The notes beneath the pieces were generated by a model. That model was not told the origin of the DNA, made no database searches, and was given only the letters and a program-made list of their open reading frames with translations. 64,000 bases of DNA, taken from Candidatus Woesearchaeota archaeon (GTDB lineage: Archaea; Nanobdellota; Nanobdellia; Woesearchaeales; UBA119). The stretch spans positions 17,233-81,232 of the forward strand of contig DAOSEK010000001.1 in NCBI GenBank assembly GCA_035363095.1, written 5' to 3'. Shown piece by piece: positions 4,202 to 54,175 of this stretch (position 1 is the first letter of the stretch; each line of letters opens with the position of its first letter). Position numbers and translations under genes: made by a program.

Positions 4202-4544
4202 TTTCCCTCGTTTTTTTCTTAAACAAGTAATATTTAGGGGTAATTTAATCCATTTATAAAAATTTCTATAAAAAATATTGAAATTATAATATAAATTTTA
4301 AATTTATAGAGGAGAAAGCGTAGGGATTAAAGATATTTTTGTTTTGGGATTATATTTTTTAATAGGTTTAATAATTATTCCAATAAATTATTCCCATATT
4401 ATAAGGTATAAGGTTTTTCTATAAGGTATAAGGTTTTTCAATGGGATTAGAATTTATTAGGATATCAAAGTATAAATAAAATAAAAAAAAGAAGAAACCA
4501 ATGCATAGGAAGGAAACGTGTTTTTAAGATTAAATCCAGAATAG

Positions 4545-7500
4545 ACTATTGGTGGTCGCATGCTGAATGTCTCGCGTGAGCTTGACACTTACACACCGAC
4601 TCCATCAAACGGGTCTTCTTCCCGTGTCCTAAGTCTCTTTTCTAGGTGGGCTTCGTACTTAGATGCTTTCAGTACTTATCCCTTAAGGCGTAGCTGCCCG
4701 GCGTGCCTTGTCAGACAACCGGTAGACCAGAGGCCTCGGTTCCCCGTTCCTTTCGTACTAGAGGATCCTTCCTATCAGACTATTTCGCACTTCCAGTAGA
4801 TATTAAACCAACTGCCTCACAGCGTTGTGAACCCAGCTAACGATCCCTTTTAATGGGTGAACACCCCCACCCTTGGTCGCTTCTGCACGACCAGGATAGG
4901 AAGAGCCGACAGCGATGTAGCAAGCCTAGCCGTCGATATGAACTCTCGGGCTAGACAACTCTGTTATCCCCGGAGTAACTTTTCGGTCATCTCTATCCCC
5001 CATCAAGGAGATATAGAGGTTCGCTAGACCAGACTTTCGTCTCTGGATCCGTTCATGTTCGGGATCCAGTCAAGCTGGCTTATGCTCTTGCACTCAACTT
5101 CGGATTTCCAACCCGAATGAGCCAACCTTTGGGCTCCACTGATACCTTTTCAGCGGAGGACCACCCCAGTCAAACTGTCTATCAATGGGTGTCTTAGATT
5201 TCTCTAGTTAGTGGGGTAAGCTCTGAAGGGTGGTTTCTCAACTTTTGTCTACACTTGACCTAGCGACCAAGCTTTAGCAACTCCCACCTAGCCTGCACAT
5301 CAAAACTCACTCCACAGCCACAGACTACAGTAAAGTTTCACGGGGTCTTCACGTCCCACTGGAAGACACTGGCCTTTACACCAGTAAAGAGAGTTCAGGG
5401 GATTCTAACCGGGGACAGTGGGGGCCTCGTTACGCCATTCATGCAAGTCGCCATTTAAACGACAAGGTATTACGCTACCTTAAGAGAGTTATAGTTACTC
5501 CCGCCGTTTACCAGCTCTTAGCTCCGTTGAACCGAAGTTTGAAGTACTGGCACTGGGCAGACTTCACCAACTATACAAATCCTTTCGAATTAGCAGTTAG
5601 CTATGTTTTTGTTAAACAGTCGGACCCCCCTAGTCACTGAGCCCTGAAATCGCATTCTTAAGAAAACAATCACAGGGACCCCTTATCCCTAAGTTACGGG
5701 GCCAATTTGCCGAATTCCCTCGATTAGATTATATCCCTCACGCCTTGGGCTACTCACCCAGGGGCACCTGTGTCGGTTCTCGGTATGGTTACTTAGAATC
5801 TATGTAAATTCCCTTTTCACTGTCTCCTGGGCTCAGCCTAACAACCATAAGCTGCTCATCGAACATTTAGTTTTTTTCTCATCGTTACGATACTCGAAAA
5901 ACATGTTGTTCTTGAATCAAGCGACGGCTTGACTAGACCTACCCTGAAGAGTCAGAAATTTACCTTTCGTTACCGCAAATATCTAAGTAGTACAGGAATA
6001 TTAACCTGTTTCCCTTTCCCGGGATTGCCAGTTAGGCATCCGGTTAGGACCAACTAACCCTTGACTGATTTGCATTGTCAAGGAACCCTAGCCCTTTCGG
6101 CGACAGGGACTCTCACCCTGCTTAGATCCTACTACCGCCAAGATTCTCATTTAAACAAGGTCCACACCCTCTTACAAAGATGCTTCTGCCCTTGCAAAAC
6201 GCCAGTCTACAACGAAGCTTTTGGCTTGTCTATGGTATCGGTAACTGATTTAGCCCCGTCCATCTTCAGGGCTTATTGCCTCGAAGGGTAAGCTGTTACG
6301 CACTTTTTAAAGGATGGCTGCTTCTAAGCCAACCTCCTCTTTGTCTTAGGCAATAAACACCTTTCACCCTTTAACACTTAACCAGTATTTAGGGACCTTA
6401 ACCATAGTCTGGGTTGTTCCCCTCTCGCAATACAAGCTTATCCCGTATTGCCTTCTCTTGGAATCTAAGGCTCATGGCACATTCGGAGTTTGACAGAAAA
6501 CCGAGGGATTTCTCCCCCTAAATCCCCTATCAGTATCTCTACAGCGCCTGACACCTCCTCCAAGGCTTGACTACCGCCAATTTCGACTGGAACCAGCTAT
6601 TCCCGCACTCGATTGGCTTTTTACCCCTACACCCAGGTCAGAAGAACGCTTGTACACAGAACCTCTGCAGGCCTCCACGAGGTTTTACCCCCGCTTCACC
6701 TTGCCCAGGCGTAGATCGTGCGGCTTCGGGTCAAACCCTTGTGACTTCGGGCACATTAATACCCAGTCCCTTACTTTATCAGCTGCGGACTTTTCGGTTT
6801 CCCTACGAGTGCTCTGTGAAAACAGATTACTCTCGCCACAAAAGTATACTCCTTGGCACGTTATTCGAAACGGACGACAGAACACATTACGTGCCCTGTC
6901 GAGGTATAACCATCAGGTTTCAGGTTCTTTTAACTCCCTATCAAGGGTTCTTTTCAACGTTCCCTCACGGTACTATTCGCTATCGGTCTTGAAATGTGTT
7001 TAGGGTTGGAGGTTGATGCCCCCCGTCTTAACGCCTAATTTCCAATAGACGCTACTCTTGGACTCACTAGATTCTTGTTCAGTTACTCATACGGGACTTT
7101 CACCCTCTATGGTATCCCTTTTCCAGAAAATTTCTGATTCCCAAATATCAAGAATACGAAAGTGGCCAACACCACATCTCTGATATATTGCTATACCAGA
7201 TTCAGTTTGCCCTTAAACCGTTTTCGGTCGCCCCTAATAACGGCATCCCAATTGGTTTCTTTTCCTGCGGGTACTAAGATGTTTCAATTCCCCGCGTTCC
7301 CCCTTCTTTCGAAGTATCCTTAAAGGATATGAAGTCACATTAGGAAATCTCCGGTTCAATGTTTGCATGCAACTCGCCGGAGCATATCGCAGCTTGCCAC
7401 GTCCTTCTTCAGCATTTCAAGCCTAGTCATCCACCTGATGGCGTAGTAGGATTAATCTCTACGCTTCCTTCCTATGCACGGCCTCATCAACATGACTTAA

Positions 7501-7560
7501 GTGATATTTAAGCCAAAGCCAAATTTGGGTAATTTGGCATCTTAGCCCTTGATCCGGCAT
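4545..7560 (-). rRNA. rrl: 23S (large subunit) ribosomal RNA, boundaries approximate
   Basis: On the reverse complement there is a GC-rich, stop-codon-dense stretch of ~3 kb with conserved LSU segments. The 3' region reads ...GATGGAGTCGGTGTGTAAGTG... (compare E. coli GATAGGCCGGGTGTGTAAGCG). It lies downstream of tRNA-Ala in the archaeal 16S-tRNAAla-23S arrangement. The ORFs the track lists inside it are spurious. Confidence 0.85.
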
Positions 7561-7667
7561 AATAGATATGCCGAACTGCATTTTCAAATAAGCATCATCC
7601 AAAGTAATTCTGGACGATACCATATGATACATTGAAAACATAATTTGTTGAAAACATTAACTTTAAA

Positions 7668-7740
7668 TGGACCCGTCGGGATTCGAACCCGAGGCCTCCG
7701 CCTTGCAAGGGCGGCGCTCTACCAGCTGAGCTACAGGCCC
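7668..7740 (-). tRNA. tRNA-Ala (anticodon TGC) in the 16S-23S spacer
   Basis: The reverse complement reads GGGCCTGTAGCTCAGCTGGTAGAGCGCCGCCCTTGCAAGGCGGAGGCCTCGGGTTCGAATCCCGACGGGTCCA. It has a 7-bp acceptor stem with a G3-U70 pair, anticodon loop CTTGCAA and T-loop TTCGAAT. CCA is not encoded. Confidence 0.9.
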
Positions 7741-7920
7741 GTCTTTGCTTAGCGTATCAGCCTAATTGCTTAGTCCAAATCGCTAGGTAATTTGATTATG
7801 ATTTTTGTAAAATTTCTAAAAATATGAATAAAGGCTGCTTTAAGATTAATTTTATCATATTTTTCATCTAACTGATGATTGTATGAATTTTTTATTTTGC
7901 AAATTTAATTTTGAAAATAA

Positions 7921-9394
<1,474 letters not shown>

Positions 9395-41439: not shown

Positions 41440-42490
41440 GTTATTATAGTATAAGACATAAATAACGCATACTTTATATAGTAATTGTACCATTATGTTC
41501 TTATGATAAACTTACAAACTCGTGAACTCTTTCTTAAGTGGAAAAAAGAAGGTAAAACGCAACAAAACATCGCTGAATTAGTGGGTTGTAATCAATCTGC
41601 GGTTAGTCGTTTATTAGTAAAGCACAAAAAGATGAGAAGTGTCAAGAACATTCCTCGTAGTGGTCGACCAACACCGCTAACAAAGGAAACACTTACTAAA
41701 CTCAAAAAAGAGTTTAAAAAACAGACAAGAGCGGCAAATAAAAAATTTTGTTCAATCGACACAAAACTATTTTCTCAATTAATTGAAAAAGAGGCGAATA
41801 AAAAATACACCACAAGACATATTGAAAGAATTATGCACAAATAGGGGGTTTTTTAATAACTAATCGTTCACAGCATATCAAAAATGATCCGAAAAAAATG
41901 CAGAATTTCGTGAAGATTTTAAAAAAAACAAAAAACAATATATTTGGGTCCTGAAATTATAGCAATAGACGAAGCAAGTTTTCAATTAACAACAACCTAC
42001 AAAAAAATTTTGTTTTCTCGTGGAGAAACACCGCTAGGTGCATTTTTTTGGAGCAACAAAAAACTTATAACTTTTGGTGCTTTAACAAGCGAACACAAAT
42101 TCTACTACGATTTTTATTACTTACAAAATAGTTTAACATTCAAACACTTTTTAAGAACCTTGTTTGAAAAATTAGACAAGAAAAAGAAATACTTTTTGAT
42201 CTTAGACAACGTAGGATTTCATAAAACGATATGCCTAAAAAATTTACTCTAAGAATACTCCCATCAAATAAGTGTCGAGCATATTCCACCTTTCTCTCCC
42301 GAACTAAATCCAATAGAAACATGCTGGAAAGTAACAAAAAATTATATGACACTATCCTAACATTTCAAAGACCTATACGAAATGCAAGAAAAGTTAGAAA
42401 ATTTTTGGTCAGAACAGATTTTTATGCAAGATTTTATGCGTTACTTATGTCGCCAACTACTATAATATTACTAAATAGAACAAATGTATT
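41440..42490 (+). mobile_element. Decayed IS630/Tc1-mariner-family insertion sequence, boundaries approximate
   Basis: ORF 41485-41844 is the HTH N-terminal part of an IS630 transposase (QQNIAELVGCNQSAVSRLL...RSGRPTPL). ORF 41944-42252 carries the DDE core (IDEASF...LDNVGFHKT). After an in-frame TAA at 42250 the same frame continues with the third acidic residue region (SVEHIPPFSPELNPIETCWKVTKNY), ending at 42357. The HTH and DDE parts lie in different frames. Confidence 0.75.
41944..42357 (+). pseudogene. IS630-family DDE transposase catalytic domain interrupted by an in-frame stop
   Basis: See the mobile_element entry. The D, D and E motifs are present but are split by a TAA at 42250-42252. 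The catalytic domain is separated by a frame change from the upstream HTH ORF. Confidence 0.65.
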
Positions 42491-42536
42491 TTACGATAAC
42501 GAAAAATTATTAAGCATAAAGGGCAAAGAAAAATAC

Positions 42537-43820
42537 ATGAAACGAACCTTGACAGTAGATGTTGCTGATAGAATTGGCGAGAAAGTTAAGATATGTGGCA
42601 GGGTATCTAATATAAGGATTTTCAAGGAAGTTGAATTTTACATTATTAGAGACAGGACAGGAGAGATTCAGGCTGTTTTTGAATCACAAAATGCTTTTAA
42701 AAAAGACGTTAAGAAGAATGCCATTGTTGAAGCCTATGGAGAGATAATTAGTGAAAATAGAGCTCCAGGGGGTTTTGAGCTAATAGTTGAAAGAATTGAT
42801 ATTTCATCTGAACCTCTGATTTCGCAACCTATTTCAACAGAGTCATGGTCAAAAACTAACATTGATTTAGAATTGGACAACAGAGCAATTTCACTTAGAA
42901 ATCCTGCAAATATAGATATTTTTGAACTTCAAAGTGCCATAGCAAAATACTTTAGAGATTTCTTTAGCAATCAAGATTTTGTAGAAGTATTTACACCAAA
43001 AATCGTAAGTAAAGGAGTCGAATCAGGTTCAAAAACGTTTAAATTAAATTATTTTGGACATCAAGTAGAACTAGCACAAAGTCCACAACTTTATAAGCAA
43101 ATCTTAGTAGGTACACAACTTGAAAGAGTGTTTGAAATTGGACATGCTTACAGAGCAGAATTGCATGATACTCCAAGGCATTTAAATGAGTTTATTAGCA
43201 TGGATGTGGAGATGTCTTACATTGATTGTTTAGACGATCTTTTAAAACTTGAAGAATCGTTTTTACATCAGCTCTTTTCAGAAATTAATATAAATTTCAA
43301 GGATATGTTAAATAGGAGAAAAATTGAACAACTGCCAGAAATAAAGAATATTCCAAGGGTGGCTTATGAAGAACTAAAAAAAATGTACAAAAAAATTAGG
43401 AAACATGAAGTTTCGATAAAGGATAGCAATTTAGAAAAATTTGCCTGTGACTATTTTATGGAAACAGAAAAGCTACCACTTGTGTTTATTACACATTTTC
43501 CATTAGTACAAAGACCATTTTACACAAAGCCGTCAGATGATGGAGTTTGTTCCGAGTCTTTTGATTTAATATATAGTGGATTAGAAATTACATCAGGTAG
43601 CATGAGAATTCATCAATATGACTTACTTAAAGAAAGCTTAAGAAAGTATAAGATTGATGAGGGAGGGATTAAATCTTATTTACAAGCATTTGAAGGTGGA
43701 ATGCCAAAACACGGTGGGTTTGCCATTGGACTTGAAAGATTGACATCACAAATTCTCAATCTGGATAATGTAAAACTAGCATCGCTATTTCCAAGAGATC
43801 GAAAGAGATACGTTCCCTGA
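42537..43820 (+). CDS. Class IIb aminoacyl-tRNA synthetase of the AspRS/AsnRS type (paralog 1)
   Basis: An N-terminal OB-fold anticodon-binding domain is present (VKICGRVSNIRIF...IIRDRTGEIQAVFE). Class II motifs are present (QSPQLYKQ, FEIGHAYRAELHDTPRHLNEFISMDVEM, GGFAIGLERL). The C-terminus is LFPRDRKRYVP. The track ORF start at 42231 reads through IS630 remnant sequence. The likely start is the ATG at 42537 (MKRTLTV). Confidence 0.7.
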   Translation: MKRTLTVDVADRIGEKVKICGRVSNIRIFKEVEFYIIRDRTGEIQAVFESQNAFKKDVKKNAIVEAYGEIISENRAPGGFELIVERIDISSEPLISQPISTESWSKTNIDLELDNRAISLRNPANIDIFELQSAIAKYFRDFFSNQDFVEVFTPKIVSKGVESGSKTFKLNYFGHQVELAQSPQLYKQILVGTQLERVFEIGHAYRAELHDTPRHLNEFISMDVEMSYIDCLDDLLKLEESFLHQLFSEININFKDMLNRRKIEQLPEIKNIPRVAYEELKKMYKKIRKHEVSIKDSNLEKFACDYFMETEKLPLVFITHFPLVQRPFYTKPSDDGVCSESFDLIYSGLEITSGSMRIHQYDLLKESLRKYKIDEGGIKSYLQAFEGGMPKHGGFAIGLERLTSQILNLDNVKLASLFPRDRKRYVP

Positions 43821-43983: not shown

Positions 43984-45018
43984 ATGTATGGTAAAAAAAA
44001 GTCAGTGTTGATATTGAAAACAGGCGGTACTATTGCGATGGAGAAAAATAGTCTAGGGGTTTTAGCACCAACATCAAATGGTTTTATTGATAAAATACCT
44101 GGTATCGGAGATATAGCTAAAATTGATACGATAGACCTCATGAATATAGACAGCACTAATATGACTACAGAATATAGAACAAAAATAGCAAGTGAGATTT
44201 ATAAGAAATATTTTCACTACGATGGCTTTGTGATTACGCATGGAACGGATACAATGGTAGATACTGCTGCCGCGTTGAATTACATGTTGCAAGACATTGG
44301 CAAACCAATAGTTCTAACAGGTTCCCAAATTCCTATTTCTGCGGGTGCCAGTAGCGATGCAATGAGAAATATATATCTTGCAGTAAAGACAGCAACATCT
44401 GATTTTAGAGAAGTAGTTATTAGTTTTGGTAACTATGTTCTTAGAGGAAATCGAGCAATTAAAAAAAGTGAATGGGAATTTGATGCATTTGATACACCTC
44501 GGGCAGGATACCTTGCAGAAGCTGGAATTGAGTTTATATTATCTGACTCGCGAATACCTAGAAACAAAAAAACACCAAAACTATATGCCAATTTTGATTC
44601 TAAAGTAAATTATATATCTCAAACTTCAGGAGGCCAAAATTCTCCAATAAAGTATTATGCTGATAACCCCAGAGATATAAGTGGCTTAGTTATTGAGGGT
44701 TATGGTGCAGGAAATATTCAAACACACCTACTACCAAGCCTTCAGAGGATGACCAAAATGGGAAAAATAATAGTAGTTACAACAAATTGTCTAAATGGCA
44801 GAGCAGATTTAAACCTTTATGAAGTAGGAGATTTGGCGATGAAAAGTGGTATTTTATCTGGGAAAGACATGACATCACACACTGCAGTACAAAAGCTTAT
44901 GTGGGCGTTAGGAATTTCAAAAAACATAACAGACAAGTATCATAAAATACAAAAAGTCAAAGAACTCTTTTACAAACCTATTGGTAGAGACATAGAATTG
45001 TCGTATAGCCTACGCTAA
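43984..45018 (+). CDS. Type I L-asparaginase
   Basis: The N-terminal TGGTIAM threonine motif is present (VLILKTGGTIAMEKN). GTDTM and a second Thr/Lys region are present. The protein is ~345 aa. The GTG track start at 43969 was replaced by the ATG at 43984, which lies 8 nt after a gaggtg Shine-Dalgarno-like site. Confidence 0.75.
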   Translation: MYGKKKSVLILKTGGTIAMEKNSLGVLAPTSNGFIDKIPGIGDIAKIDTIDLMNIDSTNMTTEYRTKIASEIYKKYFHYDGFVITHGTDTMVDTAAALNYMLQDIGKPIVLTGSQIPISAGASSDAMRNIYLAVKTATSDFREVVISFGNYVLRGNRAIKKSEWEFDAFDTPRAGYLAEAGIEFILSDSRIPRNKKTPKLYANFDSKVNYISQTSGGQNSPIKYYADNPRDISGLVIEGYGAGNIQTHLLPSLQRMTKMGKIIVVTTNCLNGRADLNLYEVGDLAMKSGILSGKDMTSHTAVQKLMWALGISKNITDKYHKIQKVKELFYKPIGRDIELSYSLR

Positions 45019-45317: not shown

Positions 45318-46664
45318 ATGATTAAAACAAGATTTATTGAAGAGATTATTAAGGACAACAAAGAAGGTAATGAACAGGTTCACGGATGGATAATTGGAAA
45401 AAGAAAATCAAAAAACTATATTTTTTTAGATATTAAAGATAGTACTGGGGTTATTCAAGTTGTACTAAACAAAAAAAAAAATGTTAACGAAGATATTGAT
45501 TATATCAAAAATCTTAAATTAAACTCTGCAGTGAGTGTAACTGGGGCGTATAATAATTCTAGAAATCAGCCTGAGATTATTGCATCATTTTACAAAATAG
45601 AAAAAGAAGCAACATTAAATTTACAGCCAAATCCAAGTAATCCACTCTTAAATCCTTTTAATGAAAATTTTATTAAGCATTTAACTAAACATCCCACATT
45701 TTACATTTCTAATAGGAAGTTAGCTACCGTTTTAAAAATAAAATCAAGATTTAGACATAATCTGGCGAGTTGGTTTTGGAGCAATAAATATGTCCAAATG
45801 GAACCCCCCGAGTTCACAAATCAAACTCTTTATGATGATAATGGTGCTTTTTGGATTAACTTAAATGGTCAAAAGATATCATTATCTAGATGTGCAACAT
45901 TTCATTTAGAACCTGGGATAATAGCTTACGAAAAAGTATTTTGCATAACTGAAACTCACGCAAACGAAATGAGTAGGTCTAAGAGACATTTAGCAGAATT
46001 TACACATCTTAAAGCAGAACTCGCGTGGGCAAATTTAGAAGATTTGATGAGTATTGCTGGAAAGATGCTTTATGAAACAGTCAGACAAACAGTTAGTGAT
46101 TGTCAGAAAGAAATTGAAATATTGGGTTTAGGTAATATTATTGAAGATAAAATAAATAGACTTAATCCCAAGAACTACAAAATTATATCCTATGATGATG
46201 CAATTGAATTGATAAAGAAAAAAGGAAAATCATTTGACTACGGAAAAAGTTTGTCTAATAAAGATGAAGAAATCCTTACCTTGGCACACAATAATTCTTT
46301 GTTATGGATTAAATTTATTCCTTGTACTGCAGAAGGGTTTCCTTTTAAGCGCAAAAATGATACTCCTCATTTAACAATGGTAAGTGATTTAATTGCTCCT
46401 GGAGGATTTGGTGAGATTTTGGGTATTGCTGAAAAAATAACAGACTATGATGAATTACTATCTAGGATGAAAGAAAAAGGAAAAGATACGCCTGAACAAC
46501 TAGAAAGGTACAAAGATTATTTAGATTTGAGAAAATGTGGTTTACCAGAACATGGTGGAATTGGTATGGGAATTGAACGTGTGGTAAGATTTTTGCTAGA
46601 TTTAAAACATGTGAGATATACAAGACCTTTTCCTGTAATCCATAAAACAAAAATTAATTTCTAA
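45318..46664 (+). CDS. Divergent AspRS/AsnRS-like class II aminoacyl-tRNA synthetase paralog (paralog 3)
   Basis: An OB-fold-like N-terminus is present (VHGWIIGKRKSKNYIFLDIKDSTGVIQVV). A motif-2-like segment (FHLEPGIIAYEKVFCITETHANEMSRSKRHLAEFTHLKAEL) and motif 3 (GLPEHGGIGMGIERVVRFL) are present. It lacks the canonical FPRDxxRLxP ending and ends PFPVIHKTKINF. Confidence 0.6.
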   Translation: MIKTRFIEEIIKDNKEGNEQVHGWIIGKRKSKNYIFLDIKDSTGVIQVVLNKKKNVNEDIDYIKNLKLNSAVSVTGAYNNSRNQPEIIASFYKIEKEATLNLQPNPSNPLLNPFNENFIKHLTKHPTFYISNRKLATVLKIKSRFRHNLASWFWSNKYVQMEPPEFTNQTLYDDNGAFWINLNGQKISLSRCATFHLEPGIIAYEKVFCITETHANEMSRSKRHLAEFTHLKAELAWANLEDLMSIAGKMLYETVRQTVSDCQKEIEILGLGNIIEDKINRLNPKNYKIISYDDAIELIKKKGKSFDYGKSLSNKDEEILTLAHNNSLLWIKFIPCTAEGFPFKRKNDTPHLTMVSDLIAPGGFGEILGIAEKITDYDELLSRMKEKGKDTPEQLERYKDYLDLRKCGLPEHGGIGMGIERVVRFLLDLKHVRYTRPFPVIHKTKINF

Positions 46665-46737: not shown

Positions 46738-47170
46738 CTAAAAGAAGGAGTATCTGTTAAGCGATTGTTGGTTAATAACAGCTCGATTTGATTGTGCGAT
46801 ATAATTTTTTATTACCTCTGCGGTTACATTACCAACACTTCGAAAAAAATTTCTAGGACTCCAAAGATGCCCCTTCCTGAAATAACCTCTCAACCACTTG
46901 TGCTTTTGGAAAAGCTTATAAGAGCTGTATCCCTTTAAGAGGTTGAACGCCTTTGAAACGCTCATTGTTGGTGGCACTTCAACAAAAAAATGAACGTATC
47001 AGTCATAACTTAAAGTTCGTATAATTGCATCCCATAACGTGATATGGCCTCTTTTAATATTACTTCACAGTCAGCCTTTACCCATGGGAATTTGAAACAA
47101 TCCCATGCATATTTTGGTTTCCATACCAGATGAAAACTGTTTTGTCCAACGCTGTGTGCGAAATTTGTTA
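46738..47170 (-). pseudogene. tnpA: IS200/IS605-family Y1 (HUH) transposase tnpA, disrupted by a stop plus frameshift
   Basis: Minus-strand translation gives the N-terminal part MEITNFAHSVGQNSFHLVWKPKY...PWVKADCEVILKEAISRYGMQLYEL*. After a one-base frame change it gives YVHFFVEVPPTMSVSKAFNLLKGYSSYKLF...WLRGYFRKGHLWSPRNFFRSVGNVTAEVIKNYIAQ. Together these match the IS200 TnpA consensus (HxH...PKY...DHVHLLV.IPP..SVS...LKG.SS...W...YF..SVG). Confidence 0.75.
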
Positions 47171-47589: not shown

Positions 47590-47662
47590 GGCTCCGTAGC
47601 TCAGTAGGTGGAGCGCACGACTGTTAATCGTGAGGTCGGCAGTTCGAGGCTGCCCGGAGCCG
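47590..47662 (+). tRNA. tRNA-Asn (anticodon GTT)
   Basis: The sequence is GGCTCCGTAGCTCAGTAGGTGGAGCGCACGACTGTTAATCGTGAGGTCGGCAGTTCGAGGCTGCCCGGAGCCG. The anticodon stem CACGA/TCGTG encloses loop CTGTTAA. A T-tract follows. Confidence 0.85.
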
Positions 47663-47702
47663 CTTTTTTACTTGTCATGTGTAGATAAGGAGTGTTATAT
47701 GA

Positions 47703-48995
47703 ATGAAAATTTCCGAACTAAAAGAAGGAATGGAGAATATTGAAATTTATGCTTCAGTTCAAGATACAAAAGCAATTGGGAAGATAATTTTTTTAAAGTT
47801 AAGAGATGACAGCGGGCTTGTCCAACTCACTTGCATTGAAGGAAGTGATATACCTTTTGATGGCATTAAATCTATAAAAAAGGAGTTTTATGTAAGAGTA
47901 AAAGGGGATGTAAGAGCTTCTAAAAATGAAGGGAGTATTGAAATCATTCCAAAACATATTATAGTTGTTTCTGAAAGTTCAGGTGATTTACCATTCAAGA
48001 TAAATAATGAATTTGAGAAGGTTTCTCAGGATAAAAGGTTAGATTGGCGCTCTTTGGATTTGCGAAGCTTAAGATTACAATCTATTTTCAAGATACAATC
48101 AGCGATTGTGGAAGGTATTACACAAGAGTTATTTTCTAAAGGATTTCGAATTTCATTTACGCCTTGTTTACTGAATACTGCATCAGAATCAGGTTCTGAG
48201 GTGTTCCCAGTCATATATTTTGACAAAGAAGCATTTCTCAGACAAGACCCACAGCTACATAGGCAACTTACTATTGCTGGTGGAGCCAAAAAGATATTTG
48301 ATTTGGGTCCAGCTTGGAGAGCAGAAAAATCACATACAAAGTACCATCTATGTGAGCACAGGGTTTGTGCGGTAGAATGCGCAGATATTGAAGATGAACG
48401 TGACATTATGAGAGTCGAAGAGTCTTTGATAGTCTCAGCAATTAATAAAGTTAATCAAACTTGCAAAGATGAATTAGAAAGACTAAATACAAGCATTTGT
48501 GTTCCTAAAACACCCTTTCCAGAGTTGACTTTCCCTGAAATATTCTCGATTTTGAAAGAAAGTGGAAAGGAAACTTTCGACAGCGAAGATTTGGATAAAG
48601 AAGCAGAGCAAATTTTAGCTAAATATGTTAAGGATAAATATGACTCAGATTTTTATTTTGTTAACAGATTTGCTTTCTCGATAAAGCCATTTTATGTAAT
48701 GAGAATAGATGATAATCCTAAACGGGCAAGATCTGTGGATTTGTATTATAAGGATCTAGAGTTGAGTTCTGGTGGACAACGAGAGCACAGATATGAGTAT
48801 TTGATGAGAAACATTGAAGAAAAGGGTGTTAAAATCTCTGAGGTTGAATGGTTTGTGAAATTCTTTAAGTATGGCGTTGCGCCTCATGGGGGATTTGCTT
48901 TAGGAATAGAAAGATTAACACTCGCACTTACTAAAAGTGAAAATATTAGAGATTGTGTACTGTTTCCAAGAGATCCAGAGAGGTTAAATCCATGA
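47703..48995 (+). CDS. aspS: Aspartyl-tRNA synthetase, archaeal type (paralog 2; likely non-discriminating given the downstream gatCAB)
   Basis: An OB-fold N-terminus is present (IGKIIFLKLRDDSGLVQLTC). The class II core and the ending APHGGFALGIERLTLALT...VLFPRDPERLNP are present. The Shine-Dalgarno site aaggagtg lies 9 nt upstream. The stop overlaps the gatC start (ATGA). Confidence 0.8.
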   Translation: MKISELKEGMENIEIYASVQDTKAIGKIIFLKLRDDSGLVQLTCIEGSDIPFDGIKSIKKEFYVRVKGDVRASKNEGSIEIIPKHIIVVSESSGDLPFKINNEFEKVSQDKRLDWRSLDLRSLRLQSIFKIQSAIVEGITQELFSKGFRISFTPCLLNTASESGSEVFPVIYFDKEAFLRQDPQLHRQLTIAGGAKKIFDLGPAWRAEKSHTKYHLCEHRVCAVECADIEDERDIMRVEESLIVSAINKVNQTCKDELERLNTSICVPKTPFPELTFPEIFSILKESGKETFDSEDLDKEAEQILAKYVKDKYDSDFYFVNRFAFSIKPFYVMRIDDNPKRARSVDLYYKDLELSSGGQREHRYEYLMRNIEEKGVKISEVEWFVKFFKYGVAPHGGFALGIERLTLALTKSENIRDCVLFPRDPERLNP

Positions 48996-49273
48996 GAATA
49001 GATGAACAAACTATTGAAATTTTGTCCAATATTTCTAAATTGAAACTAAGTGCTGATGAACAGAATCATATGATAGTTGATCTTAAAGGCATTCTTAATG
49101 CTTTTATAGCAATACAAGAAATTGATGTTCATAATTTGGAAAGTGCCATATTGCCCATTCACTTTGAGAACTGTATTAGGAATGATGAAGCCAGGGTTTT
49201 TGAAGAAGATGCTACATCAACAGCAATATATATTATCGATAATTTTATAATCGGTCCGAGGACTTTAGAATGA
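48992..49273 (+). CDS. gatC: Asp/Glu-tRNA amidotransferase subunit C
   Basis: The ~93 aa ORF is coupled by ATGA overlaps to aspS upstream and gatA downstream. Its size and position are typical for GatC. The track start (48953) lies inside aspS. The ATG at 48992 (MRIDEQTIE) was chosen. Confidence 0.65.
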   Translation: MRIDEQTIEILSNISKLKLSADEQNHMIVDLKGILNAFIAIQEIDVHNLESAILPIHFENCIRNDEARVFEEDATSTAIYIIDNFIIGPRTLE

Positions 49274-50697
49274 TTATAGAACACATAAATAACGTGAATT
49301 GTGAGAAAATAGACTTAACATCGTTTGCTAAATCTGTTATTGATGAGATAAAGGATATAAACTCGAAGATTTACTGTTTCAATTGTGTTTGCGAGGATTC
49401 TGCACTAAAGGATGTCCAGATAGTGAGTAAACGCAAAAAACTGGAAAAAGGAACCCTTGCAGGGTTAATAATTTCTGTAAAAGATAACATTTGCGTTAAA
49501 GATGTTGAGACTACAGCAGGTTCAAAAATCCTTTCAGGATATAAGCCAGTATTCAATGCAACGGTTGTTGAAAAGCTCAAAATGGAAGGAGCGATAATAG
49601 TAGGAAAAACTTCTATGGACGAGTTTGGATTTGGTGGCTTTAATATTAATACAGGAGTAGATTTTAAGGTCCCTTTAAATCCAATAGACCTCAAAAGAAG
49701 TACAGGAGGTTCTAGTGGAGGAAGTGGAGCAGTAACAAAAGTAGTTGATTTTGCTCATGTTTCGATTGCTGAAAGCACAGGTGGTTCTATTGAATGTCCA
49801 GCATCATTTTGTGGGGATGTTGGTTTTTGTCCAACATATGGTAGGATAAGCAGGTTTGGTCTTATTTCATATGCCAATTCATTAGACAAAATTGGTATAT
49901 TGTCAAAAGATGTGGAGGATATAATCCCTGTTTTTAATGCAGTTGCAGGTAAGGACAATAAAGATCCTACTTGCATAACTGATACAATTAAACTAAAAAA
50001 AGCAATAGCAAAAAAAAAATTTAAAATTGGTATAATTAGTGAGTCATTTGATGACTATATTGCCGATTATATTAAAGAACATCTAAGGGTACTAATAAAT
50101 CTAATCAAGAAGAAGCATGAAATTTTTGAAGTTTCTTTACCTTTCACTTTTAAGTACGGAGTGCCAACATATTACATAATTGCTACAAGCGAAGCATCAA
50201 CAAATCTTTCCAAATTCTGTGGGTTAAGATATGGAATTCAGGCAGATCCAAAGACTAAGACATTTTCCAATTTTTTTTCAGAAATAAGGTCTGAGAATTT
50301 GGGAAAAGAAGCAAAACGTAGGATTTTACTTGGAACCTATGCTAGAATGGCAGGTTATAGAGATGAATATTATCTCAAAGCAACAAAAGTCAGGCGACTT
50401 ATAATAGATGAATATAAAGAGGCTTTCAAAAAGTATGATGTTTTAATTTCTCCAACCACCCCAATGTGTGCACCATTATTTTCAGAAATATCGAAGATGG
50501 ATGTTGTGGAACAATATTTGTTTGATCAATTAACAGTTGGTCCAAATCTCGCAGGTTTACCTCATGCATCAATCCCTTTTGCAAAATTCGGTGAAATGCC
50601 TTTAGGACTAATGGTTGTTTCAGATCACTATAAAGAACAGGAACTCATTGATTTTCTGTTTGAAATTGAGAAGGTTGGTAAGGAGAATGGAATTTAA
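49270..50697 (+). CDS. gatA: Asp/Glu-tRNA amidotransferase subunit A (amidase family)
   Basis: The amidase signature is GGSSGGSGAVTKVVDFAHVSIAESTGGSIECPASFCG (GGSSGG...TGGS(I/V)R-type). The protein is 475 aa. Confidence 0.85.
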   Translation: MIIEHINNVNCEKIDLTSFAKSVIDEIKDINSKIYCFNCVCEDSALKDVQIVSKRKKLEKGTLAGLIISVKDNICVKDVETTAGSKILSGYKPVFNATVVEKLKMEGAIIVGKTSMDEFGFGGFNINTGVDFKVPLNPIDLKRSTGGSSGGSGAVTKVVDFAHVSIAESTGGSIECPASFCGDVGFCPTYGRISRFGLISYANSLDKIGILSKDVEDIIPVFNAVAGKDNKDPTCITDTIKLKKAIAKKKFKIGIISESFDDYIADYIKEHLRVLINLIKKKHEIFEVSLPFTFKYGVPTYYIIATSEASTNLSKFCGLRYGIQADPKTKTFSNFFSEIRSENLGKEAKRRILLGTYARMAGYRDEYYLKATKVRRLIIDEYKEAFKKYDVLISPTTPMCAPLFSEISKMDVVEQYLFDQLTVGPNLAGLPHASIPFAKFGEMPLGLMVVSDHYKEQELIDFLFEIEKVGKENGI

Positions 50698-52105
50698 TCA
50701 AGAGGTAATTATAGGTTTGGAAACACATATTGAAGTAGATACATTATCTAAATTATTTTGCTGTTGCCCACGTACTGGGATAGACACTCCTAATTCCAGA
50801 GTATGTCCTATTTGTCTTGGTCATCCTGGAGCGAGACCTTTTTTAAATGGCAAAGTCTTGGCAGCTGCAGTCAAATTGGCTTTAGCGATTGATGGTCAGA
50901 TTACAGAAAAAGTTGTGTTTTCCAGAAAAAACTACTTTTATCCTGATATGGCAAAGAATTTTCAAATAACTCAATTTGAAAGTCCACTGTCACAGAAGGG
51001 GTCTGTGAAATTAAATTCCGGTAAGTTAGTTAAAATAAGAAGACTTCATATTGAGGAAGACCCTGCGTCTTTAGTCTATCCGAAAACTATGAGAGATTCT
51101 CAATATGTTTTAATTGACTATAACAGATCAGGTATCCCACTTATTGAGTTGGTAACTGAACCAAGTATTAATTCTCCAAGAGAAGCAAGAGAATATATGA
51201 ACAAGCTCATGTCCATTTTAAGTTACCTTAAGATTTTTGATGTGAATTCCTGTGTCATCAAAAGTGATGCTAATATATCTATAAGAGATAGTGATTATAC
51301 ACGTGTTGAAATCAAGAATATAAGCGGAATTAAGGAGATTGAAAAAGCCCTTTCTTACGAGCTGATGAGACAGCGATCTTTGATACGCAGAGGAATTAAG
51401 ATTGTTAAAGAAACTAGAGGCTGGAACAAAGTAGGAAAAACGACTTTTAGCCAGCGAACGAAGGAAAGCGAAGAAGATTATGGGTATATTTCAGAGCCTG
51501 ATCTTCCCGAAATAGTTATCACACCAGAATATATACGGAAGAATAAGGATGAAATTCCTGAATTACCAGCACAAAAGCAAGTAAGATTTGTTGAAAAGTA
51601 TAAACTTAATGAGGATGATTCATTCGTATTGACTAAGGAACCTGAGATTGCAGATTTATTTGAGAACGTCGCAAAGGTGATTGATTCAAATATCGCTGCT
51701 AACTGGATAAGAGGTGAGATTTTGCGCGTTCTGAATTATAACAAAAAAAGATTGAATGATTCTTACTTATCTGCTGAGAGAATAATAGATTTACTGAAGT
51801 TATTATGTGAAAATAAGATCTCTAAAAATATGGCTCAAAATTTTTTGGAAAGAATGATTACTGAGAATTTTTCTCTCAGAGATTACATTTTGAACAATAA
51901 TATTTCGCAGATTTCGGATGACAAAATATTGACAGATATTGCAAAAAAGGTGCTAAATGAGGAAAAAATTGCATTAGAAGATTATTTGAGTGGTAAGGAA
52001 AAAGCGCTTGATTATATCATTGGAAAATGTATGGCACTTTCAAAGAGTAAGGCCGACCCAATAAAGATCAACAAGATACTATTGACTCTAATAAGAACGC
52101 GTTAA
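50687..52105 (+). CDS. gatB: Asp/Glu-tRNA amidotransferase subunit B
   Basis: The motifs are GLETHIE, CPICLGHPGA, RKNYFYPD and HIEEDPAS. A C-terminal YqeY-like tail is present. The start was set at the ATG at 50687 (MEFNQEV), which overlaps the gatA stop. The track ORF begins upstream, inside gatA. Confidence 0.85.
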   Translation: MEFNQEVIIGLETHIEVDTLSKLFCCCPRTGIDTPNSRVCPICLGHPGARPFLNGKVLAAAVKLALAIDGQITEKVVFSRKNYFYPDMAKNFQITQFESPLSQKGSVKLNSGKLVKIRRLHIEEDPASLVYPKTMRDSQYVLIDYNRSGIPLIELVTEPSINSPREAREYMNKLMSILSYLKIFDVNSCVIKSDANISIRDSDYTRVEIKNISGIKEIEKALSYELMRQRSLIRRGIKIVKETRGWNKVGKTTFSQRTKESEEDYGYISEPDLPEIVITPEYIRKNKDEIPELPAQKQVRFVEKYKLNEDDSFVLTKEPEIADLFENVAKVIDSNIAANWIRGEILRVLNYNKKRLNDSYLSAERIIDLLKLLCENKISKNMAQNFLERMITENFSLRDYILNNNISQISDDKILTDIAKKVLNEEKIALEDYLSGKEKALDYIIGKCMALSKSKADPIKINKILLTLIRTR

Positions 52106-52210: not shown

Positions 52211-53575
52211 CTATGCGAAAAGATAATTTTCTATTTCCCAATCAGTAACTATTAGCTGATTGTAGTTTTGCCATTCCTTTTCTTTTATATCAATGTATCG
52301 TTTAAAATAGCTTTCTCCAAGCATGTTTAACATTAGTTGACTTTGCTTAAAGTAGGTAATTGATTCAAATAGCGATGTTGGAAGAGTAGTTATTCCTTTT
52401 TTTGATAAATCTAATGCGTTTTCTTTGAAGACATTAGTGTTAGTATCTTTCATAATGTCTAGTTTTTTATCAATTCCTTCCAAACCTACATGCAAAAGAG
52501 CTGCAAAAGCAAGATAGGGAGAACATAAACCATCAGGACTTCTTATTTCAGCATGTGTATGATGATTAGCAACTATTGAAGATATTGGCACTCTGATTAA
52601 GGCGGAACGATTGCCTACGCCCCAACAAATATATACTGGTGCTTCGTGATCAGGAACAAGCCTTTTGTAAGAGTTGATACAAGGATTTAATATCAATGCC
52701 ATTTCTTTAGCAAAGAAAAGTTGAGCCTGAATAAAATTCCTTGCTAGATTCGAAAGATGTAATTGATCAATAGGATTGTAAAACAAAGAGTTTCCTGACA
52801 AATCTTCTAAACTGAAGTGTATATGCATTCCACTGCCTGCACATTTAGAGAATGGTTTTGGCATAAAAGTTGCCAACAGACTATGTTTTTGTGCTACAGT
52901 TCTAATAACTTCTTTCATTATCATTATTCTATCCGCAGTTATCAAAGGGTCACCATATTCTAAACCTATTTCATGTTGCCCCGTTCCTACCTCGTGGTGT
53001 GCCTTATCAACAGGCAGTCCAATAGATTTTAAATTATTTAGTATTTCCAAACGAATTTCATTTGACTTGTCTTTAACTTGATGATCTAAGTATGAACCAT
53101 TGTAATCGAAGGAAGGTGGAACAATCTTATCTCCCTTTTTTTCTACAAGAAAAAATTCAATTTCTGGTCCTACTTTCAAATTGAACCCTTTTACTCTTGC
53201 TTTATCTAGGGTTTGTTTAAGAATAGTTCGAGGTGAACAGCTATGAAGTAGGTTTTCTTTGCTATACACATCACAAAATACTCTCTTAACTAGAGCACCC
53301 GATTCATTTTGTAGAATAAAGTTGTTATTAAGGTTAGGTTTCAGGTACATGTCACTATCATATATCTCTTTAAATCCTTTCACTGAAGAACCATCAAACC
53401 ATATTCCTGAGTTTTTAGATTTTTCAAAGGAATCTTTTGTTAGTTGTATAACTTTAGGATTACCCAGAATATCACAAAATTCTAGTTCAACAAATTGAAA
53501 TCCATTATTAAATTCTTCATTAGTCTCATTGCCATAATTATTGATTAATTCTTCTTTATTGCTTATTTCATTCAT
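52211..53575 (-). CDS. glnA: Glutamine synthetase type I
   Basis: The ATP-binding signature is KPFSKCAGSGMHIHFSL (GSGMHxHxS). The protein is 454 aa. It is divergently adjacent to an Lrp-family regulator. Confidence 0.85.
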   Translation of the reverse strand: MNEISNKEELINNYGNETNEEFNNGFQFVELEFCDILGNPKVIQLTKDSFEKSKNSGIWFDGSSVKGFKEIYDSDMYLKPNLNNNFILQNESGALVKRVFCDVYSKENLLHSCSPRTILKQTLDKARVKGFNLKVGPEIEFFLVEKKGDKIVPPSFDYNGSYLDHQVKDKSNEIRLEILNNLKSIGLPVDKAHHEVGTGQHEIGLEYGDPLITADRIMIMKEVIRTVAQKHSLLATFMPKPFSKCAGSGMHIHFSLEDLSGNSLFYNPIDQLHLSNLARNFIQAQLFFAKEMALILNPCINSYKRLVPDHEAPVYICWGVGNRSALIRVPISSIVANHHTHAEIRSPDGLCSPYLAFAALLHVGLEGIDKKLDIMKDTNTNVFKENALDLSKKGITTLPTSLFESITYFKQSQLMLNMLGESYFKRYIDIKEKEWQNYNQLIVTDWEIENYLFA

Positions 53576-53710
53576 TTTTCACACCTTTGGTAACTTAAAA
53601 AGATAATAACCGATACTTTATTAATATTTTGTCTAAAAAAGTTAACAAATTACAGCTTATAACCGAAAAAAATATATATTTGATAGCTTAATCATATATT
53701 TTGAGTAATA

Positions 53711-54175
53711 ATGAAAGCAAATGAAAAGTGGGAACTAGATGAATTAGATCGGAAAATAATAAGATATCTTCTGCAAAATGCAAAGGCATCTTTTAGAAAG
53801 ATTTCAAGAGCTTTAAGGATAACCTCAGTTACAGCTCTTAATAGAATAAAAAAACTTGAAGAAAAAGGAATAATTATAGGCTATTCAGTTAAGCTTGATA
53901 TGGAAAAAGCAGGTTTTGATGTTAATGCAATAATAAAACTTCGCATTTCAAAAGGAAAGTTATTTGAAGTTGAAAAAAAGATTGCGATACATAAAAGAGT
54001 TGTTGCTGTATATGATGTCACTGGTGATTTTGATTGCATTATAATAGGTAAGTTTAAATCCAGAAAGGAACTGGATGTGTTTCTAAAAGATACTCAAACC
54101 TATGACTTTATCGAGAGAACTGAAACTATTCTCATTCTTAATGTAATAAAAGAGGATAATATTGCCGATATATAA
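53711..54175 (+). CDS. Lrp/AsnC-family transcriptional regulator
   Basis: An N-terminal HTH (LDELDRKIIRYLLQNAKASFRKISRALRITSVTALNRIKKLEEKGII) is followed by a RAM/ACT-like effector domain. Confidence 0.8.
   Translation: MKANEKWELDELDRKIIRYLLQNAKASFRKISRALRITSVTALNRIKKLEEKGIIIGYSVKLDMEKAGFDVNAIIKLRISKGKLFEVEKKIAIHKRVVAVYDVTGDFDCIIIGKFKSRKELDVFLKDTQTYDFIERTETILILNVIKEDNIADI

Follow-up and report, generated by a model that had tools for sequence, protein, structure and literature searches.

Paralogues of aminoacyl-tRNA synthetases are known to have taken on other tasks. In the asparagine synthetases AsnA and AS-AR, for example, the class IIb core has been repurposed for Asp/Asn chemistry, which sets a precedent for neofunctionalisation in this superfamily. 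HisZ, which is a regulatory subunit, and GluQRS (YadB) and EpmA/PoxA, which aminoacylate non-standard acceptors, are all encoded beside their functional partners, and the amino acid:[carrier protein] ligases, a family that derives from SerRS and has a SerRS-like core but no tRNA-binding domain, are encoded beside a carrier protein. On the amidation side, GatD, an asparaginase homologue, is paired with GatE, and the Asn-transamidosome brings together a non-discriminating AspRS (ND-AspRS), tRNAAsn and GatCAB. Here, we report a gene at positions 45318-46664 (plus strand) of a 64,000-nucleotide stretch of DNA from a Candidatus Woesearchaeota archaeon (assembly GCA_035363095.1, contig DAOSEK010000001.1, positions 17,233 to 81,232; the whole stretch is referred to below as the window). 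Its product resembles asparaginyl-tRNA synthetase (AsnRS) and belongs to a clade, termed Group A in this study, that has given up the motif 2 arginine of class II synthetases while keeping its other ATP and Mg ligands. We tentatively propose that this protein has acquired a new function as a tRNAAsn-linked ligase, in which ATP is probably still used and an arginine has been relocated.

The gene starts with ATG and encodes 448 amino acids in an open reading frame (ORF) without disruptions. An initial, sequence-only reading of the locus had described the product as a divergent AspRS/AsnRS-like paralogue with an N-terminus resembling an oligonucleotide/oligosaccharide-binding (OB) fold, and both descriptions held. 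Pfam places an OB-fold anticodon-binding domain at residues 21-93 (45378-45596, plus strand; PF01336, E 1.1e-12) and the tRNA-synt_2 class II D/K/N core at residues 128-440 (PF00152, E 3.3e-47), which together constitute the OB-fold and class IIb core architecture of AsnRS. The nearest solved structure in a sequence search is the Pyrococcus horikoshii AsnRS 1x54 (E 1.3e-54), and an AlphaFold2 model computed from an alignment of 29 family members, with a predicted local distance difference test (pLDDT) value of 85, has the same structure as its top Foldseek match (template modelling (TM) scores of 0.83/0.86). AsnRS is also the best curated family for this protein, yet its scores on the two AsnRS equivalog models (NF003037/TIGR00457), 246.7 against a cutoff of 414 bits and 219.7 against 342.6 bits, fall far short, whereas a canonical AsnRS on a related contig reaches 441.5 bits. 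The 99% identical twin in GenBank (HOI18283.1, Ca. Woesearchaeota archaeon) is named 'asparagine--tRNA ligase'. The scores on the AsnA models NF005052 (110.6 against 368 bits) and NF005054 (105.8 against 309 bits) are below the cutoffs as well, and the ratio of the AsnA to the AsnRS score, 0.45 here and 0.43 for canonical AsnRS, reveals no shift towards AsnA. The protein descends from AsnRS, but these profile scores, and the loss of the motif 2 arginine, the residues that read Asn and the C-terminal tail detailed below, show that it is not a canonical AsnRS.

A graded series of homologues was retrieved by a search of 5.8 billion proteins and then aligned. Besides the query, Group A takes in 53 clusters with an identity of at least 44%, from Woesearchaeota-type archaea and gut Firmicutes, and is recognised by the signatures LSRCATFHLEP, S-H-A-(N/D)-E in place of SFRAE, HLKAE and G(C/T/I)AEK and by an altered tail. 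Group B consists of several subgroups from DPANN archaea, bacteria of the candidate phyla radiation (CPR) and Clostridia, the members of which are named 'hypothetical protein' or 'asparagine--tRNA ligase' in databases. Canonical AsnRS follows in the series at an identity of approximately 30%.

Residues of the active site were mapped by alignment with the AsnRS proteins of P. horikoshii, Thermus thermophilus and Brugia, and 37 canonical sequences were compared. The mapping is unambiguous because the motif 2 stretch aligns without gaps (FRAEKSRTRRHLTEF against HANEMSRSKRHLAEF). In the motif 2 region (THANE...RHLAEFTHLKAE; 45954-46019, plus strand; gap-free alignments), which contains the peptide FHLEPGIIAYEKVFCITETHANEMSRSKRHLAEFTHLKAEL that had been singled out as unusual, the canonical SFRAE has become THANE, and Ala215 occupies the position of P. 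horikoshii Arg211, the arginine of the fRxE motif. This arginine is invariant in the canonical sequences compared (37/37) and is present in 100% of all Group B subgroups, whereas the position is Ala in 87% of Group A and Ser in the remainder. In human AsnRS, the motif II arginine, R322, binds the phosphate of Asn-AMP (PMC10831071). The initial claim that class II motifs 2 and 3 are both retained was therefore borne out for motif 3 (HGGIGMGIER; 46551-46580, plus strand), in which the invariant Arg421 is intact, but not for motif 2, in which the strand-loop-strand is in place and the defining arginine is Ala215. Around motif 2, Glu217, Arg223, His224, Glu227 and Phe228 are retained, and the Mg-binding Asp357 and Glu366 are found in DLIAPGGFGEILGIAEK (46386-46436, plus strand). 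The ligands of ATP and Mg (Arg223, His224, Glu227, Phe228, Asp357, Glu366 and Arg421), among them the motif 2 loop RHLxEF that is shared with 1x54, are thus kept and are invariant or nearly so throughout Group A.

The pocket that holds the amino acid, by contrast, has been rebuilt. Lys232 (46011-46013) replaces Glu228 of P. horikoshii, and Lys373, which lies within DLIAPGGFGEILGIAEK, replaces Arg364; from the published P. horikoshii and T. thermophilus structures, we take these two residues to be the readers of the Asn side chain. Lysine is found at both positions in 100% of Groups A and B, and Glu and Arg in 100% of the canonical sequences. In addition, Glu339 (46332-46334, plus strand; alignment) stands for Lys330, and the exchanges E228->K and K330->E occur in 100% of the Lys-type clade, as we call Groups A and B together. 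Judging from the alignment, Lys232 and Glu339 would contact each other as a polarity-swapped version of the Glu228/Lys330 pair; because E228K is matched by K330E, the net charge of the pocket remains AsnRS-like. The ligands of the alpha-amino group have changed as well. The loop QTLYDD (residues 169-174; 45822-45839, plus strand) stands in place of the canonical 'EGG' loop, with Tyr172-Asp173 taking the place of Glu-Gly and Tyr172 replacing Glu168, whose human counterpart, E279, lies in a loop and binds the Asn moiety (PMC10831071). Similarly, the eight consecutive invariant residues RCATFHLE (residues 191-198; 45888-45911, plus strand) replace QS(A/G)QLYLE, so that Cys192 and Thr194 replace the alpha-amino ligands Ser188 and Gln190, and Arg191 replaces Gln187, the first residue of 'QSxQ'. 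Arginine is found at this last position only in Group A and is the sole basic residue that Group A has specifically gained. The exchanges Q187->R and R211->A/S co-occur in Group A only, and the closest outgroup, B1', has Q and R. A ThrRS-like metal site composed of Cys192, His196 and His214 was considered and dropped, given that His214 is Phe in several members (P0007, P0008, P0030, P0053 and L151).

Further departures from canonical AsnRS were found outside the pocket. The protein ends in PFPVIHKTKINF (46626-46661, plus strand) in place of the class IIb FPR..R..P tail, as had been remarked from the sequence, and the two neighbouring AspRS paralogues end in FPRDRKRYVP and FPRDPERLNP. The consensus of the Group A tail is PF(P/A)V(I/V)(H/K)..(K/Q)IN(F/H), in which the canonical R, R and P correspond to V, S/T and H/F. 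In the Group A OB-fold, the arginine of the canonical 'LRD' and the RAPGG.E anticodon loop are lost, while R29, F36 and D41 are invariant; Group A has also lost seven arginine residues that canonical AsnRS sequences conserve. Group B, which shares the derived Tyr172, Cys192, Lys232, Glu339 and Lys373 with Group A, differs from it in keeping Gln187, the motif 2 arginine and the FPR..R..P tail, and is far more diverse: clustering at 50% reduces Group A to one full-length representative and Group B to dozens.

Might these oddities simply reflect chance or the decay of a single gene? The substituted residues are invariant in 29-54 Group A sequences, archaeal and bacterial, and in the alignment of 29 members both the RCATFHLE run and the ATP/Mg ligands are invariant. 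Copies that are 99% identical to the protein occur in several independent metagenomes, and orthologues of 79-81% identity retain each residue that is invariant in Group A. Because these features are invariant, or nearly so, in more than 50 homologue clusters sharing as little as 44% identity, they are the product of neither chance nor decay. Within-clade identity in the catalytic core is 0.67-0.73 for Group A against 0.65 for canonical AsnRS, whereas in the OB-fold it is 0.38 against 0.48, and the amino acid pocket is the most conserved part of the Group A protein.

In a neighbour-joining (not maximum likelihood) tree of 407 columns with 200 bootstraps, the whole Lys-type clade received a support of 200/200, Group A together with subgroups B1 and B1' 200/200, and Group A alone 186/200. 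Group A is thus nested in a larger AsnRS-like clade of the Lys type, through which it diverged from AsnRS. The bacterial members of Group A form a group of their own (200/200) that is nested among the archaeal members, which points to a transfer from archaea into Firmicutes. We also considered that a Lys-type protein might be the sole AsnRS of CPR bacteria; this was unsupported, as the Patescibacteria loci with an AsnRS in our GTDB scan carry the canonical type. Two Lys-type loci outside Group A are recorded here in their own right. In Ca. Falkowbacteria (PFAR01000013.1; L140:8001-10654), the Lys-type gene COT99_00950 ('hypothetical protein') lies in tandem, at 30 nt, with an archaeal-type aspartate--tRNA(Asn) ligase, with a HIT gene approximately 1.2 kb further downstream. 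In a Lachnospiraceae metagenome-assembled genome (MAG; L084:6208-15827), a Group B2 member is clustered with HisRS-like, PurD-like ATP-grasp, AAA and HD genes, a 293-aa class IIa core fragment (tRNA-synt_2b) and an archaeal-type AspRS; the DPANN members have a different context, and the one seen here may represent an island of aminoacyl-tRNA synthetase paralogues. No recognisable extra domain was found in the longer homologues P0134, P0151 and P0141, which were inspected for Rosetta-stone fusions.

The Group A gene of the window lies, as the sequence-only reading had placed it, between an asparaginase gene and a tRNA-Asn gene. The type I asparaginase (43984-45018, plus strand) has all of the catalytic motifs TGGT, HGTDT and RAIK and scores 209 bits on the GatD model; it is separated from the Group A gene by 300 nt and is therefore not translationally coupled to it. 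Upstream of it is an AspRS of the archaeal, QSPQ type (42567-43820, plus strand; 452 bits against a cutoff of 353 on NF003483, the model for aspartate--tRNA(Asn) ligase), for which the ORF call extends back to 42231; since homology begins near 42567, the long ORF (42231-43820) probably over-extends into an upstream transposase fragment. Transposase fragments border this Asx cluster: an ORF pair at 41485-42252 includes a DDE_3 (IS630-like) domain, and a transposase-like remnant called at 46738-46977 (minus strand), the translation of which we read as probably IS200/IS605 TnpA-like, lies between the Group A gene and tRNA-Asn. The tRNA-Asn(GTT) gene, detected by a tRNA gene search, is at 47590-47663 (plus strand). 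It is followed by a second AspRS (47703-48995, plus strand; 438 bits against a cutoff of 353) of the archaeal 'QDPQ/CEHR' subtype, annotated as aspartate--tRNA(Asn) ligase, which is the first gene of an operon with GatC (48992-49273), GatA (49270-50697) and GatB (50687-52105), all on the plus strand and identified on the identical contig L143 by the Pfam families GatC, Amidase and GatB_N/GatB_Yqey, respectively. This GatCAB (48992-52105) is an Asp-tRNAAsn amidotransferase, so that a full indirect route to Asn-tRNAAsn (tRNA-Asn, ND-type AspRS and GatCAB) directly follows the Group A gene. No QueC-like (PP-loop), HIT or canonical AsnRS gene was found in the window.

The second AspRS was itself examined as a possible aberrant paralogue, a notion that we rejected: its QDPQ (for QSPQ) and HLCEHRVCAVE motifs (HLCEH for HLNEF and CAVE for MDVE) are common to 119/120 best homologues. 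Homologues of this subtype, which is annotated as non-discriminating, span Woesearchaeota, Aenigmarchaeota, Bathyarchaeota and Methanomethylicia. The Tyr of its 'KYH' is peculiar to this organism among the homologues for which the motif was shown, the others having Lys, Arg or Leu. Directly after GatB, at 52211-54175, are a glutamine synthetase gene (minus strand) and an AsnC/Lrp-type regulator, and several genes of nitrogen and amide metabolism are thus gathered here. The window as a whole is archaeal, with a GC content of approximately 33% and an rRNA operon that matches archaeal Rfam models; this operon (16S, spacer tRNA-Ala and 23S) is complete at 4528-9393 on the minus strand and has a GC content of approximately 45%.

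The contexts of relatives were collected in one genome scan, one metagenome scan and twelve contig look-ups, and were annotated by local BLAST, Pfam/NCBIfam and ARAGORN. In a relative of 79% identity (L152), an asparaginase 84% identical to that of the window is located directly upstream of the Group A orthologue. In a relative of 74% identity (L145), the order is canonical AsnRS, Group A, a QueC-like gene and a HIT gene; the AsnRS, which carries LSQSAQLYLE, PSFRAE, GGQRE and FPRTMNRAFP, lies 20 nt upstream of the Group A gene. The relatives of 61-63% identity share the order Group A, QueC-like and HIT, after which a canonical AsnRS follows in L001, L082 and L087 (441.5 against 414 bits), and in L151 the same three genes are followed by HisRS. 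The bacterial members come from gut and rumen Clostridia-like and 'Mycoplasma'-labelled MAGs, including a Hadza human gut contig. In these bacteria, an asparaginase-family gene begins 8-20 nt after the Group A gene in all of the distinct loci with downstream DNA (15/15), and most of the loci go on to GatC-GatA-GatB and AspRS; one of them (L007) has the order tRNA-Asn, Group A, asparaginase-like, AspRS and GatCAB, with a separate hisS-aspS further on.

Subgroup B1 has a similar setting. Two of its loci (L083 and L103) have the order asparaginase, AspRS, B1 and GatA, to which L083 adds a QueC-like gene following B1; in a third (L149), B1 and a QueC-like gene are divergent from asparaginase-AspRS-GatC-GatA-GatB; and a fourth (L102) has the order HIT, B1, QueC-like and tRNA-Asn. 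B1 thus shares QueC-like, HIT, asparaginase, AspRS and GatCAB neighbours with Group A. Overall, tRNA-Asn(GTT) adjoins members of the family in three independent lineages, and each locus long enough to show its flanks has either a complete alternative route to Asn-tRNAAsn or an AspRS together with the Group A or B1 gene, the alternative route beside Group A being either a canonical AsnRS or AspRS with GatCAB. In other Woesearchaeota (L008 and L069), AspRS genes likewise have a canonical AsnRS gene in their vicinity. Among the called genes of approximately 30 contexts, there was no carrier-protein (PP-binding) gene.

The two kinds of partner protein have features of their own. The QueC-like partner is a PP-loop protein of about 305-342 aa with the motifs SGGKDS and C...CxxCxxC and with only 13 homologues among the 5.8 billion proteins (genes at L082:2575-3603, L145:3931-4893, L083:9364-10365, L149:7001-7996 and L151:2781-3698, all outside the window). 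Its model (pLDDT 88.8) is best superposed on QueC (3bl5; TM 0.74, target-normalised) and on the QueC-like CBASS protein Cap9 (9nto; 0.70), which are its closest folds; the chemistry of the QueC family converts a carboxylate to an amide. All of the sampled loci with a QueC-like gene at least 39% identical to the query have a Group A or B1 gene alongside, and HIT usually follows. The most distant QueC-like homologue (28%; L150:3153-4163) is in a phage-like region by terminase and portal genes, and no synthetase gene was found near it. The bacterial asparaginase-like partners (L079:11324-12448, L004:2747-3748 and 13 more loci) retain TGGT and HGTDT, but the catalytic Lys (RAxK) is replaced by Gln or Glu, and GxGxGN by YHSGT. 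On the model for type I asparaginases they reach approximately 93 bits against a cutoff of 260, and they may thus be something other than ordinary asparaginases.

How does this arrangement compare with the described systems? With canonical AsnRS, Group A shares the OB-fold and class IIb core, motif 3, the Mg-binding acids and the linkage to tRNA-Asn; apart from the sequence differences described above, it is set off by the true AsnRS that sister lineages encode alongside it. PDB entry 3p8t, which we take to be the archaeal asparagine synthetase A (AS-AR; 'AsnRS2' of P. abyssi), appeared among the structure-sequence matches of the protein. However, AS-AR and AsnA have no OB-fold and keep the motif 2 arginine, whereas Group A has the OB-fold, Ala215 and low AsnA scores. 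The sequence-only reading had suggested a possibly neofunctionalised enzyme, an idea that remains attractive, and had named as candidates a tRNA-independent AsnA-like enzyme and an amino acid:carrier ligase, both of which are now disfavoured: the former by the retained OB-fold, by the adjacent tRNA-Asn in three lineages and by a score of 111 against a cutoff of 368 bits, and the latter by a class IIb core with an OB-fold, unlike that of a SerRS-derived family, and by the absence of a carrier-protein gene from the approximately 30 contexts. As with HisZ, GluQRS and EpmA, a synthetase paralogue is encoded next to partner genes, but those three proteins lack an anticodon-binding domain, which Group A keeps, and GluQRS and EpmA keep their catalytic residues; none of the three is known to have an asparaginase or a QueC-like enzyme as its partner. 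The resemblance to GatD/GatE and to the Asn-transamidosome lies in the pairing of an asparaginase fold with a protein of a tRNA pathway and in the same pathway genes nearby. Here, however, the partner has a class II synthetase fold and not that of GatB/GatE, GatCAB is also present, and the pairing is a genomic one. In the full-text literature that we searched, there was no description of the Group A clade or of a pairing of an AsnRS-like protein with an asparaginase or a QueC-like protein, which is not proof of novelty.

What, then, might the Group A protein do? We propose, tentatively, a class II ligase that still depends on ATP and Mg and would dock tRNAAsn through its OB-fold. Having given up the motif 2 arginine (Ala215), it would rely on Arg191, at the old 'QSxQ' position, to take over at the alpha-phosphate or carboxylate, and the rebuilt pocket (Tyr172-Asp173, Cys192, Thr194, Lys232/Glu339 and Lys373) would hold an Asx-type ligand, Asn or Asp, in a mirrored or shifted geometry. 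Arg191, the only candidate for this role, adjoins Cys192, the counterpart of Ser188, which contacts the alpha-amino group of the adenylate, so that the long side chain of the arginine could plausibly reach the carboxylate or phosphate and may thereby compensate for the loss in motif 2. Such an enzyme would be a second, accessory handler of tRNAAsn and Asx within the module that supplies Asn-tRNAAsn, and would act with an asparaginase-family protein in the lineage of the window and in bacteria, or with a QueC-like ATP-dependent carboxylate-amine ligase and a HIT hydrolase in other archaea. The parts of this proposal differ in strength. We consider it likely that ATP is still used in catalysis, because the Mg-binding acids would otherwise not have stayed conserved across two domains of life. 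With similar assurance, we regard the protein as accessory and neofunctionalised, and not as the sole or housekeeping route to Asn-tRNAAsn, since a further, complete route is always encoded alongside the gene. Both the OB-fold and the recurrent linkage to tRNA-Asn suggest tRNAAsn as the partner, which we rate as evenly balanced, and aminoacylation of tRNAAsn by the rewired site is our leading, but doubtful, guess at the specific reaction. The B1 members keep the motif 2 arginine yet share the partners of Group A, which suggests that a common function survives without that residue.

Several points weigh against this proposal. Loss of the motif 2 arginine normally cripples adenylation, and the structural model is least confident precisely around Arg191 and motif 2, with pLDDT values below 50 at residues 192-194 and 216-220. 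The loss of seven conserved arginine residues and of the canonical anticodon loop implies that tRNA binding may be weakened or changed. Moreover, for every reaction that can be named there is at least one context in which a neighbour already provides it: L145 and L082 for AsnRS activity, loci with GatCAB for transamidation, and loci with ND-AspRS for aspartylation of tRNAAsn. No single reaction therefore stands out. Organisms with dual pathways (AsnRS, AspRS and GatCAB) are known, namely D. radiodurans, T. thermophilus and Bdellovibrio (PMC4206432), and redundancy alone is thus no bar to a plain AsnRS.

Indeed, the protein might be an ordinary but divergent AsnRS, the third of a Thermus/Deinococcus-like trio (a discriminating AspRS, an ND-AspRS with GatCAB, and AsnRS), with lineage-specific oddities and an unchanged function. 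Exactly such a trio, together with tRNA-Asn, is present in the window, AsnRS is the best match of family and fold as well as the GenBank name, the E228K/K330E swap leaves the net charge of the pocket as it is in AsnRS, canonical AsnRS genes lie near AspRS genes in Woesearchaeota L008 and L069, and the coexistence of AsnRS and GatCAB has been documented (PMC4206432). An ordinary AsnRS, however, would hardly lack an arginine that is invariant in 37 canonical sequences or score so far under both curated cutoffs, and a dedicated and extremely rare QueC-like partner would be unexpected. The closest non-conspecific relatives, in what are presumed to be small DPANN genomes, encode a canonical AsnRS and the Group A protein in tandem, and L007 has a second AspRS, GatCAB and tRNA-Asn in the Group A operon besides hisS-aspS. 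The alignment had been named beforehand as the place where intact specificity residues would identify a canonical AsnRS; it showed that the Asn readers, the alpha-amino ligands, the motif 2 arginine and the tail are replaced, and a true AsnRS is clustered with close orthologues. We therefore regard a plain AsnRS as unlikely. The replacement of three alpha-amino ligands together with the motif 2 arginine, beside a retained ATP/Mg site, is also what would be expected if the substrate were bound in another register, as in an amidoligase that uses ATP to activate the beta-carboxyl group of Asp, either free (as AsnA does) or on tRNAAsn, with ammonia supplied by the asparaginase-family partner as it is to GatE by GatD. 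This protein would amount to a two-subunit asparagine synthetase or to a third kind of tRNA-dependent amidotransferase. The tight coupling in the bacterial loci (8-20 nt in 15/15), the homology of GatD to asparaginases and the 209 bits of the window asparaginase on the GatD model, the carboxylate-to-amide chemistry of the QueC family to which the alternative partner is related, and a relaxed OB-fold that suits a weaker dependence on tRNA would all fit. Yet a further amidotransferase would be redundant beside the adjacent GatCAB of the window, of L083, L103 and L149 and of most bacterial loci; the profile scores show no shift towards AsnA (0.45 against 0.43); in bacteria, the asparaginase-like partners no longer carry the catalytic Lys; the window asparaginase, 300 nt away, is without translational coupling; and free Asn is not needed where the indirect route alone is used. 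Even taken jointly, these two forms of amidoligase appear fairly improbable.

The loss of the catalytic arginine and of many other conserved arginine residues could, alternatively, mark a pseudo-synthetase, a non-catalytic subunit that binds Asn, Asp, ATP or tRNAAsn and serves its partner, either the asparaginase or the transamidosome, as a regulator or scaffold, much as HisZ regulates HisG. Another complete route to Asn-tRNAAsn is always alongside, the partner genes are tightly coupled, and a canonical catalytic residue is absent from the bacterial Group A protein as well as from the asparaginase-like protein paired with it. On the other hand, the Mg-binding acids, the motif 3 arginine and the remaining ATP ligands are invariant in archaea and bacteria, and conservation that peaks in the pocket, as it does here, is usually a mark of catalysis or at least of specific ligand binding; this argues against a pure scaffold but is compatible with a sensor. 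The fully dead pseudo-synthetase that had once been suggested is thus unlikely, given the very strong constraint on the ATP/Mg ligands and the pocket, and a non-catalytic subunit in the broader sense is, in our view, quite improbable. A decaying gene, or an artefact of annotation after a rearrangement mediated by insertion sequences (IS), would account for the IS-like remnants at 41485-42252 (DDE_3) and 46738-46977 that border the cluster and for the missing QueC-like and HIT partners of the sister lineages. However, the intact ORF, the 99% identical copies in several metagenomes, the orthologues of 79-81% identity that hold every clade-invariant residue and the asparaginase-Group A pairing kept in the 79% relative effectively refute this explanation, to which we assign next to no probability. 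The predicted structure, the comparison of active sites, the phylogeny and the conservation of ligands, which had been proposed as the means of checking the locus, have thus yielded an AsnRS fold, a rebuilt pocket, a Lys-type clade and retained ATP/Mg ligands, and we continue to lean, tentatively, to a tRNAAsn-linked ligase with a relocated arginine. A broader variant, for which we see some room but which is on balance rather unlikely, is that Group A and B1 proteins and their dedicated partners (QueC-like with HIT, or asparaginase-like) form an undescribed tRNAAsn-linked system, either a third type of tRNA-dependent amidotransferase or a system for the chemical modification of the aminoacyl group carried by tRNAAsn.

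To our knowledge, the motif 2 arginine is regarded as invariant in class II aminoacyl-tRNA synthetases. A whole clade that has dropped this residue while its other ATP and Mg ligands are under strong selection represents either a natural relocation of a catalytic residue or a new use of the synthetase fold. Group A is notable in combining the loss of a residue regarded as universal under high constraint with fixed partnerships and an inter-domain transfer into gut Firmicutes. If the broader variant is correct, no natural enzyme with a class II synthetase fold was previously known to dispense with the motif 2 arginine, as Group A would do by moving the function of that residue elsewhere, and its module would have crossed from DPANN archaea into the Firmicutes of the human and ruminant gut. 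Since these proteins bear the database names 'asparagine--tRNA ligase' or 'hypothetical protein', a direct route for charging Asn may be wrongly credited to them when the metabolism of DPANN archaea and of small-genome gut Firmicutes is reconstructed. The fixed pairing with an asparaginase-family protein, or with a rare QueC-like protein and HIT, near tRNA-Asn, AspRS and GatCAB constitutes a compact and testable system that bears on how the supply of Asn-tRNAAsn and the metabolism of Asx amides are organised in reduced genomes.

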